Positions 3,404 through 49,493 of a DNA stretch of 64,000 bases are shown here, one piece after another. The stretch's first letter is position 1. Every line of letters starts with the position of its first letter. The notes under the pieces were generated by a model. It saw only the letters and a program-made list of their open reading frames with translations, made no database searches and had not been told where the DNA came from. Made by a program: the position numbers and the translations under genes. This DNA is from Escherichia phage JoYop. The DNA lies in the sequence record OR769032.1. One strand, 5' to 3'.

Positions 3404-3784
3404 TCACTTAGTCAAATTTTTTACACATGAATTATAAGAATTCACCACATACTCCATCGGAGCATTTTTACCTGTACGCCATTGGTAATTATTAGCCCAA
3501 TTTGCCCAAAGTTCAGCGCAATAATTTTCAATTTTTTCTTCGTGTGTAATTACATCTGAATTACGATATGCTTGAGCAGATTCATCTGGGCGAATAGCTT
3601 CGTCAAAATTCGCCTGCATTTGTTCTACTGTCTGCTTTGGAGCTTCTTTATAACACTTGACATTAGGATTATAAAATTTGCTTGAGCAGTTTACAATTTT
3701 TCCTACATCAGATTGATTTACTACCGGTCCTTGAGCTACACAACCAGTAAGACCCAATGCAATAACCAAAATAGCGATTTTCAT
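3404..3784 (-). CDS. predicted lipoprotein, unknown function
   Basis: 126 aa; signal peptide with lipobox (ALGLTGC); several Cys; no T4 counterpart recalled at this position. Confidence 0.6.
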   Translation of the reverse strand: MKIAILVIALGLTGCVAQGPVVNQSDVGKIVNCSSKFYNPNVKCYKEAPKQTVEQMQANFDEAIRPDESAQAYRNSDVITHEEKIENYCAELWANWANNYQWRTGKNAPMEYVVNSYNSCVKNLTK

Positions 3785-3794
3785 AACAATTTCC

Positions 3795-4031
3795 TCAAAT
3801 GCAAGTAGTAATTACACCTGTAGTGCTCACACATGTATTCCCTAATTGAACACCTAAAGATCCGTTAGTATTCATATGAAGATTATCACCAATTTTAGTT
3901 GATACTTTCCCATTCATATGAATAATAACACTAGATTCAATAGGAGTCTGAATATCATTTTCAACATCAATAAATGGAATTGTTGCTAATGCAACTAAAC
4001 AAACTGCTAAGCAACCATAAACAATTTTCAT
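3795..4031 (-). CDS. small secreted protein, unknown function
   Basis: ATG at 4029-4031 (track start 4043 is a TTG); MKIVYGCLAVCLVALA signal peptide; RBS GGAG upstream; directly behind an early promoter. Confidence 0.5.
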   Translation of the reverse strand: MKIVYGCLAVCLVALATIPFIDVENDIQTPIESSVIIHMNGKVSTKIGDNLHMNTNGSLGVQLGNTCVSTTGVITTCI

Positions 4032-39793: not shown

Positions 39794-39971
39794 CTAAACG
39801 AATAGGTTCATGAATGCCATATCCTTGAACAGATATTTCTGTCGTAGGATAAATTCCATCAATATCACCCATATTCCACGCTTCATTAAATTGCTGTTCG
39901 CCTGAATTACTAAACCACTCGGCGAAAGCATTTAGCACATCTTTAGAACCTTCAATAATTATCTTTGCCAT
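39750..39971 (-). CDS. hypothetical protein
   Basis: 73-aa ORF. Confidence 0.45.
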   Translation of the reverse strand: MAKIIIEGSKDVLNAFAEWFSNSGEQQFNEAWNMGDIDGIYPTTEISVQGYGIHEPIRLVEYDLCTGEEVKYD

Positions 39972-40333
39972 TACAGACTCTCGGTAAAGGTACGAGCGAT
40001 AACGTCGCGCTGCTGTTCCGGAGTCAGAGAGTTAAAGCGAACTGCATAACCTGATACACGGATGGTCAGCTGCGGATATTTTTCCGGATGCTTAACTGCA
40101 TCTTCCAGAGTTTCACGACGCAGAACGTTAACGTTCAGGTGCTGACCACCTTCAATTTTAACTGTAGGCTGTGGCTCAATTTCAATTTCACGGGCATGCA
40201 AACCATAGAAAATTTCTGGGTCTACAAAAGAGTCCTCTTTAAAGGTTTTAGAAACGATAATTCGTGCTTGAATACCATCTTCAAAATAAATAGTACCTTT
40301 GTGCGTGCCTTCAAGAATTTGATATGCTTTCAT
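39971..40333 (-). CDS. autonomous glycyl-radical cofactor (GrcA/YfiD-like)
   Basis: 120 aa; C-terminal [28 protein letters not shown] carries the RVSGY glycyl-radical motif. Confidence 0.8.
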
Positions 40334-40340
40334 ATAAACC

Positions 40341-40721
40341 TCAATTAGAAAATAAATTTATCCAAGATTGTTCTTTAATTAAAAATGGCTCAGAATCATA
40401 TGCCATTAAACTCTGGGTAATTAATCCTTTAAATGGTCCATCAATAAATTCCATTGTAAAATATGGAATTTTATTCATTAACCGTGCATTAGGAGCAGTG
40501 CACAAAACTCTGCATCCTTTGAATACGCCTTTCTGCAATTTATACTGCTTAGGATAAAATTCGCTCAAAATGTTGTTATTTGCCAAAATTTCAAAATGAT
40601 TCACCAATTTATTTTTAATAGTTTTTGGCGAAAAATAAAGATATTCGAAAAGCTGTGCATCTGTCATCATTGCATTCCGATTACGAAAAACTGTGGACGA
40701 GTAATACCACCAATGCAGCAT
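40341..40721 (-). CDS. hypothetical protein
   Basis: 126-aa ORF; true start uncertain. Confidence 0.45.
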
Positions 40722-41206
40722 TTACTTTTACAGCAATGTTGCACAGTGTCAATATGAATGTCGTAAATCTTATCCATATCAGGAGATTTAACGGGCTCAT
40801 CAATTATATACAAAATTCGTGAAAGCGATAAACCTCTGAACTTGCTTCCTTTATTACCAATAAAACTGCGCACAGAATCAGTAAATAAACGAAAACGTAT
40901 ATCATCGTTAGAATAACGCGAAAATTCCTTTTTAATGTTATTTGCAGAAATTTTAGCGTAAGCTGAAGTATTAGAAAGAACAATAACTGTTCCGCCATCA
41001 TACAACCAATTGGCAGCAAAATTAGTCACAGCAATTGATTTACCGGATTGACGTCCACCGTCAAGTCGAAGTGTGCAGTACTGTTTAAGTAAGTCTTCAA
41101 ATGGCGGGATATATTCGTTTTTACAAATTTCTTCTACTCTAGCATCAGAATGGTGTGTAAAAGCATTCATCAGGGATAGATAAGGACCAGTCAAAAATGT
41201 TCTCAT
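40667..41206 (-). CDS. small P-loop protein
   Basis: Start at ATG 41204-41206 (MRTFLTGPY); Walker A-like GGRQSGKS and Walker B-like ILYIIDEP. Confidence 0.5.
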   Translation of the reverse strand: MRTFLTGPYLSLMNAFTHHSDARVEEICKNEYIPPFEDLLKQYCTLRLDGGRQSGKSIAVTNFAANWLYDGGTVIVLSNTSAYAKISANNIKKEFSRYSNDDIRFRLFTDSVRSFIGNKGSKFRGLSLSRILYIIDEPVKSPDMDKIYDIHIDTVQHCCKSKCCIGGITRPQFFVIGMQ

Positions 41207-41270
41207 TTTGTTCTCTCTAGATTTGGGCCATTCCATGGCGCATGAATTGTCCATTCCTGTATTTACCCCT

Positions 41271-41316
41271 CCAAGTAATTATGAATATACTATCACAATT
41301 CTAGGAGAAAGTAAAC
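41271..41316 (-). promoter_or_regulatory. T4-type early promoter
   Basis: GTTTAC 41311-41316 with a -10 block in 41271-41295. Confidence 0.45.
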
Positions 41317-41318
41317 TG

Positions 41319-41621
41319 TTATTTACCTTTAATTACTTTAGCTGCTTCGATAGCCGCTTGCTGAAGGTCATCCATAGACATACCGAATTTAGAAGCAAAG
41401 TTATCAATTTTCTTTTCGACAGCATTCAAAGGCTTGGCCTGTTTACCTTCATTAGCGCCAGGAAGAGCGAGAATACGCTCTTTGTCAATATAAAGGCTTA
41501 CAAGTTTCTTACGGTCTTTATCGGACAAATCATGAAATGAATGGGCCTTTTTATTTATAGCGGCTTCTAATTTACCTGCACTCACTCGCGCTTCAGTAAT
41601 AAATTCTTGATAGGTTTTCAT
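41319..41621 (-). CDS. ipII: internal protein II-like
   Basis: 100 aa; N-terminal capsid-targeting sequence MKTYQEFITEA; length matches T4 IPII. Confidence 0.75.
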   Translation of the reverse strand: MKTYQEFITEARVSAGKLEAAINKKAHSFHDLSDKDRKKLVSLYIDKERILALPGANEGKQAKPLNAVEKKIDNFASKFGMSMDDLQQAAIEAAKVIKGK

Positions 41622-41661
41622 ATGTTTCCTTTAATGTAAATAGATTTGAGTATTCGTTTTA

Positions 41662-42240
41662 TTAGGAATTACGGGCTGCATTAGCAACGGCGTAAGCGTA
41701 CTGAATATTGACGTCTTTAAACGTACCTTTGGAGGTATCTATTTCTGCCTTAAAGCCGCCTTTAGTCATAACATCGGCAAATTCTTTACGGAAAGCCATT
41801 GCATCAAGACCTTTCCATGATGATTTATGCTTAGCAAATTCAAGACCAGCGTAGTTGACAGCCTTAGCTAATTTATTATCAATAACCCATTTACCGGCTT
41901 TAGGTACAAACACTGGGCCTTTCTGTTTAGAGAATAGTTTTAAATTCCAACGACGAAGGTCACCGTCAGCTTTAACAAAAGCTGCGTCCAAGTTACTAGC
42001 AACAACATCTTGAATATGGCCAAATTTAAGCCCATCAACTTCAATATTTAGATCAGTACGCCAGCGAAGTCCTTCCCAAGCGAAAGCTTTAAAGTCAGAA
42101 GCTTTTGTAGCTAAGTACCGTTCAATAGGAGCCGTTTTAGGGTCAAAGCCGTTTCCCGATCGATAGGTCCACTCATCTTTATTAATGCCTTTGGCCTTTT
42201 CCACAGAAGCTTCAGCGATAAATTCTTTATACGTTTTCAT
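41662..42240 (-). CDS. ipIII: internal protein III-like
   Basis: 192 aa; N-terminus MKTYKEFIAEA; length matches T4 IPIII. Confidence 0.75.
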   Translation of the reverse strand: MKTYKEFIAEASVEKAKGINKDEWTYRSGNGFDPKTAPIERYLATKASDFKAFAWEGLRWRTDLNIEVDGLKFGHIQDVVASNLDAAFVKADGDLRRWNLKLFSKQKGPVFVPKAGKWVIDNKLAKAVNYAGLEFAKHKSSWKGLDAMAFRKEFADVMTKGGFKAEIDTSKGTFKDVNIQYAYAVANAARNS

Positions 42241-42259
42241 GTGTTTCCTTGTTTGTTTT

Positions 42260-42298
42260 GATAGAGTAATTATACCATATTAATACTTAAGCGTAAAC
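42260..42298 (-). promoter_or_regulatory. T4-type early promoter
   Basis: GTTTAC 42293-42298 with tggtataat -10. Confidence 0.45.
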
Positions 42299-42301
42299 TG
42301 T

Positions 42302-42562
42302 TTAAGCTTTACCGCCAGAAATAATTCCGAAGTTGTTAAAATCGTATCCAATATCGTCAACATCTACTTTAGGGCTTGCTACAACATAAGCAATTTCACT
42401 ACGTTTTGCATAGGTGTTTATTTCTTTACCATCACCGCCTAGGAAAGAATACCCATTACGTTTTAATGAGCCAAAGTCTTCCGCATCACCAATGAAAGCT
42501 TTAACTTTAAATTTAGGACCTTTGGCATCTGCTTCAGTGATAAATTCTTGATACATTTTCAT
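42302..42562 (-). CDS. internal-protein-like small protein
   Basis: 86 aa; N-terminus MKMYQEFITEA matches the IP capsid-targeting motif. Confidence 0.6.
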   Translation of the reverse strand: MKMYQEFITEADAKGPKFKVKAFIGDAEDFGSLKRNGYSFLGGDGKEINTYAKRSEIAYVVASPKVDVDDIGYDFNNFGIISGGKA

Positions 42563-42568
42563 TTTTCC

Positions 42569-42982
42569 TTAGTAAATTGATTTACCATAGTATTTGTACC
42601 AAGTAGGACGTTGAGCAATTTTTTCGTCTAAGCGTGCTTGACTTATCGCAATGGACGCTTCGGACGGGACATAATTATTACGAAATTCGGCAGGGATGTC
42701 AGAAATATCCTGGACAGATGTGTCCTTGATTTTGAAACCACGTTTCAAGCATTCGGCGATTAGCTCGATTTGACGTAAACGTAAAAATTCAAGTTTGTCG
42801 TAAAAGAATGTTACATGACCTGTGCCTAAGATAAATGTTGGAGAGATTTTAAAATCCTTTACACGTTTACCGTTTTGAACATGTTTACGGACTGCACCAA
42901 ATACGCGTGGTAATTCACGATACTCAGCCATAAGATGTTGGTCGGTCAGTTCAGAAACAAGTGTTAAATTGATACGAGTCAT
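42569..42982 (-). CDS. denV: endonuclease V (pyrimidine dimer DNA glycosylase)
   Basis: Start at [12 protein letters not shown] (138 aa); matches T4 DenV as recalled. Confidence 0.92.
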
Positions 42983-42997
42983 AATTTCCTCCAAGTA

Positions 42998-48734: not shown

Positions 48735-48811
<77 letters not shown>

Positions 48812-48815
48812 TATT

Positions 48816-48890
48816 TGGCGGACATGCATGGATTCGAACCATGGACCAATTGATTAACAGTCAACTGCTCTACCACTGAGCTACACATCC
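48816..48890 (-). tRNA. tRNA-Asn (anticodon GUU)
   Basis: GGATGTG...GCTCAGTGGTAGAGC D-arm, loop CTGTTAA, T-arm CATGGTTCGAATCCATG, CCA end. Confidence 0.8.
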
Positions 48891-48894
48891 AAAT

Positions 48895-48981
48895 TGGTGG
48901 GGAGTGATGGAGTCGAACCACCCGAGTCGCAATGACAATGGATTTACAGTCCACACCGCTACCTCTACGGGATAACTCCCC
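48895..48981 (-). tRNA. tRNA-Tyr (anticodon GUA), long variable arm
   Basis: Loop CTGTAAA; class II variable arm; acceptor GGGGAGT/ACTCCCC; CCA end. Confidence 0.75.
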
Positions 48982-48994
48982 TTAATTCTTAATT

Positions 48995-49069
48995 TGGTGG
49001 CCCTGGGTGGAATTGAACCACCATCTGGCGATTATGAGTCGCTTGCTTGAACCTTCCAGCTACAGGGCC
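48995..49069 (-). tRNA. tRNA with CAU anticodon (Met, or Ile if the wobble C is modified as in T4)
   Basis: Loop CTCATAA; acceptor GGCCCTG/CAGGGCC; T-arm GGTGGTTCAATTCCACC. Confidence 0.75.
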
Positions 49070-49070
49070 T

Positions 49071-49146
49071 TGGTGCTGATTGACGGAATCGAACCGCCGA
49101 CCTTCTCATTACAAGTGAGTTGCTCTACCTACTGAGCTAAATCAGC
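49071..49146 (-). tRNA. tRNA-Thr (anticodon UGU)
   Basis: Loop CTTGTAA; acceptor GCTGATT/AATCAGC; T-arm GGCGGTTCGATTCCGTC. Confidence 0.8.
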
Positions 49147-49150
49147 AAAA

Positions 49151-49241
49151 CTGGCGGAGGCGATAGGATTTGAACCTATGAGTCGCCGGAGCGACTGCCG
49201 GTTTTCAAGACCGGTGCATTAAACCACTCTGCCACGCCTCC
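49151..49241 (-). tRNA. tRNA-Ser (anticodon UGA), long variable arm
   Basis: Loop CTTGAAA in CCGGT/ACCGG stem; class II variable arm; acceptor GGAGGCG/CGCCTCC. Confidence 0.8.
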
Positions 49242-49243
49242 AG

Positions 49244-49317
49244 TCTCCATACAAGGATTTGAACCTTGGACCTCCTGATCCCAAATCAGGCGCTCTACCA
49301 AACTGAGCTACACGGAG
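49244..49317 (-). tRNA. tRNA-Pro (anticodon UGG), CCA not encoded
   Basis: Loop TTTGGGA; C1-G72 acceptor; 3' end abuts tRNA-Ser without CCA. Confidence 0.75.
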
Positions 49318-49327
49318 TAAATTAAAT

Positions 49328-49401
<74 letters not shown>

Positions 49402-49406
49402 AAATT

Positions 49407-49493
49407 TGGTGCGAGAAGTGGGACTCGAACCCACAAGGAAATCATTCCGCAGCATTTTAAGTGCTGTGCCTTTACCAATTTGACCATTCTCGC
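49407..49493 (-). tRNA. tRNA-Leu (anticodon UAA), long variable arm
   Basis: Loop CTTAAAA in CAGCA/TGCTG stem; class II variable arm; T-arm GTGGGTTCGAGTCCCAC. Confidence 0.8.

Follow-up and report, generated by a model that had tools for sequence, protein, structure and literature searches.

An open reading frame on the minus strand at positions 40667..41206 of the window, by which the whole 64,000-nucleotide stretch of Escherichia phage JoYop DNA (OR769032.1) analysed in this study is meant, is by sequence comparison the orthologue of vs.8 of phage T4, a gene that has long been catalogued. Profile, structure-prediction and conservation evidence agreed that its product, Vs.8, is a small, stand-alone P-loop protein in which both Walker A and Walker B are intact, as a sequence-only reading of this DNA had proposed. 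We consider the chances about even that vs.8 is an early gene of a T4-like phage encoding a minimal, active RecA-like ATPase, which would need an oligomer or a partner and would have an accessory role in takeover or counter-defence. T4 is the best-studied large phage, and about half of its early genes are without a function; Vs.8 is among the few of these with a clear enzymatic signature, is single-copy throughout the enterobacterial Tevenvirinae, and is made early as a protein.

The vs.8 coding sequence and its start codon

The reading frame encodes 179 amino acids, followed by a TGA stop codon at 40669-40667. Both motifs that had been pointed out in an ORF of about 180 amino acids could be read from the sequence, all on the minus strand: the Walker A motif (P-loop) GGRQSGKS at 41036..41059 (residues 50-57), which has the terminase-like form RQxGK[ST], and the Walker B motif ILYIIDEP at 40793..40816 (residues 131-138), which includes D136 and the putative catalytic E137. 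The protein ends with the C-terminal strand FFVIGMQ at 40670..40690 (residues 173-179, minus strand), the last beta-strand in the AlphaFold model being E172-176.

According to the list of open reading frames, the longest version of the ORF begins at an in-frame ATG at 41254 and has 195 amino acids, and the version beginning at the ATG at 41206 has 179. The start was assigned to 41206 because of the positions of the initial Met in homologues, the stop codons upstream of it, and a conservation of the leader that is discordant with the reading frame. In searches of 5.8 billion proteins and of 1.84 billion representatives, nearly all Vs.8 homologues were 160-185 aa in length and started at the equivalent Met, and in most of 35 related loci the equivalent ATG was the sole in-frame ATG downstream of a stop. 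In the approximately 60 nt located 5' of the ATG, nucleotides are kept between T4 and the window, while an 8-nt indel shifts the reading frame. The product from this supported start retains the P-loop.

A longer product (195 aa in the window, 219 aa in the T4 annotation) whose N-terminal extension has a function is extremely unlikely. The ATG at 41254 is in frame, a GGAGG sequence is located upstream of it at 41272-41268, and the GenBank record AF158101 lists T4 Vs.8 at 219 aa, that is, with a 40-residue N-terminal extension. However, the distance of 13 nt between the GGAGG and the ATG at 41254 is too far, the same conserved nucleotides are read in one frame in T4 and in another in the window, a stop codon is found just 5' of the conserved Met in most loci, and the extension in T4 and in a 246-aa homologue (P0033) translates the covarying core of an RNA element. 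The 'PVIRS' peptide that is found in both extensions is the translated RNA core CCUGUAAUAAGGUC; the RNA-core-derived extension corresponds to positions 3406-3525 of the T4 locus (L001; 64,793-64,912 of AF158101) and to residues 1-74 of P0033. The gene models of 219 aa for T4 and 246 aa for P0033 are very probably too long on this sequence evidence, and the 40-residue extension of T4 Vs.8 is probably not translated. The T4 vs.8 gene model would thereby be revised to 179 aa instead of 219 aa, its annotated N-terminus being a conserved structured RNA. In the 1986 record X04567, T4 vs.8 is ORF 64.0, for which five alternative starts are listed, the 179-aa form among them. Three longer Vs.8 homologues were inspected; one was a mistranslated RNA leader, and the other two had N-terminal extensions, in which no Pfam domain was found.

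Conservation, fold and relatives of the P-loop domain

Vs.8 matched PHROG 1488, a family of unknown function, with an E-value of 2.2e-79 over profile positions 2-177 of 177, and the same family was matched by all 32 aligned relatives. The gene was found as one copy per genome in 1009 phage records, all of them Enterobacterales T4-like phages of approximately 160-175 kb, and the family comprises only 50 clusters at 50% identity among the 1.84 billion representatives. T4 Vs.8 (AAD42678.1; ORF 64.0 of X04567; UniProt P13318) has 91% protein identity to the Vs.8 protein of the window, has the same motifs, and is encoded at the same place, upstream of vs.7-vs.6. No main-text discussion of vs.8 was found in the literature searched, where it appeared only in the expression tables of PMC9697503, and it is not named in a T4 transposon-sequencing preprint (bioRxiv 10.1101/2025.11.20.689424).

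The sequence GGRQSGKS matches the Walker A pattern GxxxxGK[ST], and ILYIIDE matches the Walker B pattern of hhhhD followed by a catalytic Glu. Residues D49, G50, G51, R52, Q53, S54, G55 and K56 were invariant across 17-19 homologues with identities down to 40%, as were R113, R124-G125, E137-P138, F173, G177 and Q179, and D136 was nearly invariant (at least 90%). Because of this conservation, the Walker A and Walker B motifs of Vs.8 are not chance matches. In a 32-sequence alignment reaching 18% identity, R52, G55, R113 and G125 were still at least 90% conserved. Four distant members of the family have GH[ST] in place of GK[ST] and are missing the DE, which indicates that the wider family is not catalytic throughout.

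An AlphaFold2 model of Vs.8 based on a 17-sequence alignment (pLDDT 81, pTM 0.81) consisted of a helical hairpin at the N-terminus and, after it, a domain of five strands with alternating beta-alpha topology. The model suggests that Vs.8 is probably a single RecA-like (ASCE) P-loop domain, nearest to domain 1 of helicases and to the ATPase domains of large terminases. Foldseek matches in the PDB were weak and of a generic helicase/terminase type (best E-value 6e-4), and the structural matches were limited to helicase domain 1, with 115-146 aligned residues. In the BFVD database, uncharacterised proteins of 145-175 aa from T4-like and jumbo phages, including Proteus phiP4-3, Vibrio JSF10, Aeromonas Aes012, Ralstonia phiRSL1 and Pseudomonas 201phi2-1, had the same size and predicted fold as Vs.8 (Foldseek E-values of 1e-8 to 1e-3), a likeness of fold at 11-25% sequence identity. 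The earlier judgement that the protein is too short for accessory domains agrees with the model, in which no second RecA domain, lid or nuclease domain is present and the chain ends at the motif III strand. A protein made of one stand-alone RecA-like domain that stops at motif III has an architecture that is both minimal and unusual.

No Pfam model reached its cut-off with Vs.8 (Terminase_6N, 12.7 bits against 22; AAA_14, 15 bits against 27; AAA_30, also sub-threshold), Terminase_6N was sub-threshold in 16 of the 32 relatives (best E-value 1.4e-4), and the NCBIfam search returned no match. A sequence-profile search of the PDB gave only matches with E-values of approximately 0.07, to a TraG-like coupling protein and to the SRP receptor. 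The large-terminase family phrog_2 was a secondary match of Vs.8 (E-value 1e-5) and was common to 18 of the 32 relatives (best E-value 3.9e-8).

When the diverse Vs.8 alignment was compared with T4 gp17 by hhalign, a probability of 90.7% (E-value 1.3e-6) was obtained at 16% identity, the 111 aligned columns spanning Walker A to Walker B. The comparison paired R52-Q53-x-G55-K56-S57 of Vs.8 with R162-Q163-L-G165-K166-T167 of gp17, whose P-loop is S161-T167 (SRQLGKT), R124-G125 with R245-G246, and D136-E137 with D255-E256, the Walker B motif of gp17 being M251-E256. The link to terminases depends on the diverse alignment, because a narrower Vs.8 alignment gave a probability of 9%. In control comparisons, the probabilities were 45% for Dda, where just 50 columns around the P-loop were aligned, 27% for gp41, 0.8% for UvsX, 0.5% for UvsW, 1.3% for the thymidine kinase of the window and less than 1% for two other ORFs of the window with Walker A motifs. 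From these alignments, Vs.8 is probably related to the terminase ATPase domain. The region of gp17 that can be aligned to Vs.8 is approximately 110 residues of subdomain I (Pfam Terminase_6N; PDB 2o0h), at an identity of 16% and below the Pfam threshold; Vs.8 differs from gp17 in lacking a TSS-type coupling motif, since it ends with GMQ, and in being expressed early.

Membership in the terminase, helicase and thymidine kinase families was considered and rejected. Vs.8 is not a large terminase subunit, as it has neither ATPase subdomain II nor a C-terminal RNase H-like nuclease domain and ends at residue 179 after the post-Walker B strand, and its gene is located in an early block between ipII and vs.7, not beside the small terminase and portal genes, and is far from genes 16, 17 and 20; in T4, genes 16 and 17 are approximately 32 kb from the position of vs.8. 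Nor is it an SF1 or SF2 helicase, which requires two tandem RecA-like domains with motifs I-VI, Vs.8 having only one domain. Compared with the RecA1 domain of SF2/SF1 helicases such as DEAD-box proteins, Mfd, RecG and RecD, Vs.8 lacks RecA2 and motifs IV-VI, and its monomer thus has no composite ATP site or nucleic-acid cleft. A TK1-type thymidine kinase was rejected because of the low hhalign probability against the tk product of the window and because the C-terminal cysteines, which would correspond to the Zn lasso, are not conserved.

A broader possibility, that Vs.8 is a nucleoside or nucleotide kinase of the P-loop kinase type of approximately 180 aa which serves phage nucleotide metabolism, is very improbable. 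P-loop kinases typically have the size of Vs.8, one distant homologue had a weak, sub-threshold match to Pfam TK (E-value 0.013), and tk, approximately 4 kb from vs.8, and other nucleotide-metabolism genes are located in this region of the genome. Against this, an hhhhDE Walker B motif with a conserved Glu is a signature of ASCE ATPases and not of kinases, the thymidine kinase control speaks against kinship, and neither a lid nor a Zn lasso is conserved, the Cys-rich segment at residues 157-165 being unconserved and of low confidence in the model.

The labels deposited in GenBank for homologues of Vs.8 and Vs.7 include 'endoribonuclease', 'TraG-like protein', 'large terminase subunit' and 'terminase large subunit'. 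None of these was supported as family membership, and the 'endoribonuclease' label looks like a spill-over from the nearby regB gene.

Early promoter, neighbouring genes and possible role

A T4-type early promoter of the form GTTTAC ... TGaTAGTAT (GTTTACTTTCTCCTAGAATTGTGATAGTAT) was identified at 41287..41316 on the minus strand, directly past the ipII stop codon (41319) and 81 nt 5' of the vs.8 ATG. The pattern GTTTAC-N16-19-TAnnnT occurred at 17 sites in the window against 3.3 expected, a number that none of 100 shuffled sequences reached, and 16 of the 17 sites were on the minus strand in the nearly identical form GTTTAC ... TGGTAYTAT, which we take to be the T4 early-promoter consensus. 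The low coordinates of these sixteen minus-strand 30-nt sites are 4066, 18341, 22691, 26311, 29273, 31409, 34170, 34982, 39181, 41287, 42269, 43010, 46752, 47310, 51105 and 51484. The assignment of an early promoter of its own to this ORF was thus borne out by a consensus match in a form common to 15 sibling promoters on the same strand. A generic sigma-70 scan of the window missed the site because it needs TTGACA-like -35 boxes.

The homologous promoter of T4 is located after ipII and 5' of denV, and denV sits between ipII and vs.8. In the window, denV (42569-42994, minus strand) lies upstream of ipIII, so that the promoter at 41316-41287 directly serves vs.8. The gene order at 41319-42994 is denV, an 86-aa ORF, ipIII and ipII, leading to vs.8, in contrast to ipIII, ipII, denV and vs.8 in T4. 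The 86-aa ORF (42302-42562, minus strand) begins with MKMYQEFITEA, an N-terminal signal like that of ipII and ipIII, and probably encodes an additional internal (capsid-packaged) protein. T4 also has a complete structured RNA element, along with denV, between the promoter and vs.8, whereas in the window the promoter abuts a truncated leader. This 5' leader of vs.8 (41207..41270, minus strand) is the 3' remnant of a structured RNA element of which T4 and most relatives have a complete copy; its nucleotides are conserved in T4 and in loci L006-L040. It contains a weak GAGAG ribosome-binding site at 41213-41217, and taken alone the remnant was no more stably folded than shuffled sequences (z = -0.18). 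In time-resolved omics data (PMC9697503, supplement), T4 Vs.8 belongs to the early class both by RNA and by protein.

The minus-strand genes around vs.8 are denV, the 86-aa ORF, ipIII, ipII, vs.8, vs.7, vs.6, vs.5, vs.4 (Acb2), vs.3 and regB, and because of these surrounding genes the window was assigned to a T4-like phage. Megablast matched 811 phage records; T4 had approximately 94% DNA identity over the region, with synteny of vs.8-vs.7-vs.6. In about 110 of the 811 records, one unbroken match covered 80% or more of the query, which ran from vs.7 to ipII; the gene order of the window would give such a match. The order vs.8 - vs.7 - (vs.6) - vs.5 - vs.4 - vs.3 - regB was found in T4 and in most of 35 related loci, one or more of the genes being undetected in some.

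The vs.7 gene (40341..40670, minus strand) encodes 109 aa and belongs to PHROG 2049, of unknown function. Its ATG overlaps the vs.8 stop codon (caATGA, 40670-40667), an arrangement suggesting that the two genes are probably translationally coupled. In most of the 35 related loci it was detected downstream of vs.8 and usually adjacent to it; in 8 it was undetected, and one of these 8 loci is cut off directly past vs.8. The structure prediction for Vs.7 (pLDDT 64, pTM 0.45) was too poor for a fold search. A precomputed table gives PF26834 for all Vs.7 homologues, and the local copy of Pfam had no family for Vs.7. The product of the next gene, vs.6 (39971-40333, minus strand), is a glycyl-radical domain of 120 aa that resembles the 'spare part' proteins GrcA/YfiD (Pfam Gly_radical, E-value 2.8e-18) and that scored 153 bits against TIGR04365, under the cut-off of 170 bits. 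Elsewhere in the window, a cluster of nine tRNA genes was found at 48738-49493 (minus strand), of which the tRNA at 48900-48979 scored barely above the threshold.

In ASCE NTPases, the Lys and Ser of the P-loop are ligands of phosphate and Mg2+, and the Asp-Glu of Walker B acts as the catalytic base. Since these residues are conserved, ATP binding and hydrolysis are predicted for Vs.8, and from its sequence we infer that it hydrolyses ATP. According to the mechanism that we propose, vs.8 would have a sigma-70/T4-early promoter of its own for early transcription, and its translation would begin at the 41206 ATG, giving a domain that appears to be a reduced relative of helicase domain 1 and of the N-terminal ATPase subdomain found in T4-type large terminases. 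K56 and S57 would be the ligands of the ATP phosphates and Mg2+, D136 and E137 would activate water for hydrolysis, and R52, R113 and R124-G125 might sense or stabilise the gamma-phosphate. Because the chain ends at the strand of motif III or the coupling motif, the Vs.8 monomer is without the second surface with which such enzymes normally close the active site and hold nucleic acid, and with no second domain it would be unable to translocate or unwind. Vs.8 would thus depend on an oligomer or a partner, either as a homo-oligomer whose active sites are completed in trans, with R113 or R124 as possible trans residues, or docked on a partner protein. Vs.7 is a candidate partner because the start of its gene overlaps the vs.8 stop codon. 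How such minimal ATPases work would become clear from what completes the active site of Vs.8, be it self-assembly, a host protein or Vs.7.

In a T4 HIDEN-SEQ preprint (bioRxiv 10.1101/2025.11.20.689424), the neighbouring genes tk.4 (AdfM) and 57B (Acb1) are both counter-defence genes. A dispensable role in host takeover or counter-defence would suit Vs.8 rather than one in core replication or packaging. This putative role is favoured because vs.8 is located in an accessory early block together with Acb2 (vs.4), AdfM (tk.4), internal proteins and regB, and a study of Vs.8 could reveal a new activity of this kind.

It was also considered whether Vs.8 might be a non-catalytic mimic, in which a terminase-like nucleotide-binding face serves as an early decoy or inhibitor with no need for ATP turnover, for example by occupying host sensors of the large-terminase ATPase domain or by titrating a host factor. 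The terminase ATPase subdomain is its nearest relative by profile, its expression is early, long before packaging, its gene lies in a block rich in counter-defence genes, and distant relatives have been retained although the Walker Lys and the DE were lost. Such a mimic is nevertheless unlikely, because K56 and E137 are strictly invariant and D136 nearly so in the T4-like branch, which points to catalysis, because the likeness to gp17 spans so short a region at such low identity, and because there is no genetic link to a defence system, the only match of Vs.8 to PADLOC models being a marginal one to HerA (E-value 0.033). A more specific proposal, that Vs.8 is a miniaturised copy of the packaging-motor ATPase domain of the phage itself which acts, possibly with Vs.7, as an early decoy or inhibitor of Avs-type terminase sensors or of another host ATP-dependent machine, is very doubtful. 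If it were true, the unusual structured RNA located 5' of vs.8 in T4 and most relatives might belong, with Vs.8, to one regulatory or counter-defence module.

The structured RNA 5' of vs.8 in related phages

The most unusual thing near vs.8 is the RNA core found upstream of it in related phages. In loci whose Vs.8 proteins are only 33-45% identical, approximately 130 nt 5' of the start are much better conserved than the protein. The core has three helices and the layout [P2 5' strand]-A-CCUGUAAnAAGGUC-[short hairpin]-GGUAA-[P2 3' strand]. It is located on the minus strand in T4 at positions 3468-3516 of the locus (L001), which correspond to approximately 64,855-64,903 of AF158101, and in other relatives at approximately 3770-3950 of loci L006-L040, in loci L041-L118, and at 2001-2045 of locus L241.

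Across 57 distinct sequences of the core, 85% of the cells were paired, compared with 69% in shuffled alignments, a value that none of 500 shuffles reached, and cells with double changes numbered 113 against 48 in the shuffles. The covariation score was 0.41, compared with at most 0.105 for slid registers. Three pairs of P2 were never unpaired, with 3-5 pair types each, and the G-U pairs among them fix the strand. In a test for a helix P1 that would close the core, the result was no better than in controls, and such a helix was not accepted as a general feature; RNAalifold on a gappy MAFFT alignment of the element found one hairpin only. Searches of Rfam 15, with gathering thresholds and with E-values up to 1-5, returned no match, ARAGORN found no tRNA or tmRNA in the element, and a literature search with its sequence string returned nothing relevant.

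With a 61-nt T4 query, the core was located in 1017 phage records of GenBank, among them those of T4, of rV5-like Vequintavirus and of Campylobacter phages; almost always, no feature is annotated at the core. In a pattern scan of IMG/VR, T4-like genomes had one copy of the core or two tandem copies, always 5' of vs.8 and on the same strand as this gene, and in some of them an ip gene intervened. The core was found as well in many unrelated contigs, typically within non-coding stretches of 500-1000 nt, and was co-oriented with nearby tRNA genes in all 11 of the checked contigs that have such genes. The pairing filter was passed by one of the 120 chance-level matches that the pattern returned in genomes of bacteria and archaea.

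A covariance model of the core scored 50-70 bits in T4-like loci, compared with 10 bits at best in the window; by this model, the core is absent from the window and also from the relative G2133, which has the same gene order. In the window, all that is left is the conserved leader sequence (41207-41270) that elsewhere adjoins the core on its 3' side; here it is joined to the promoter near ipII.

In rV5-like phages, the long structured region with the RNA core leads directly into a strong promoter of the sigma-70 type (TTGACA-N17-TAAAAT or TAAACT), after which comes a small ORF; the promoter is located at 2117-2145 of locus L241 and downstream of the core in loci L104, L109 and L114. Its position after the core echoes that of the promoter-like GTTTAC segment found 3' of the core in T4-like phages.
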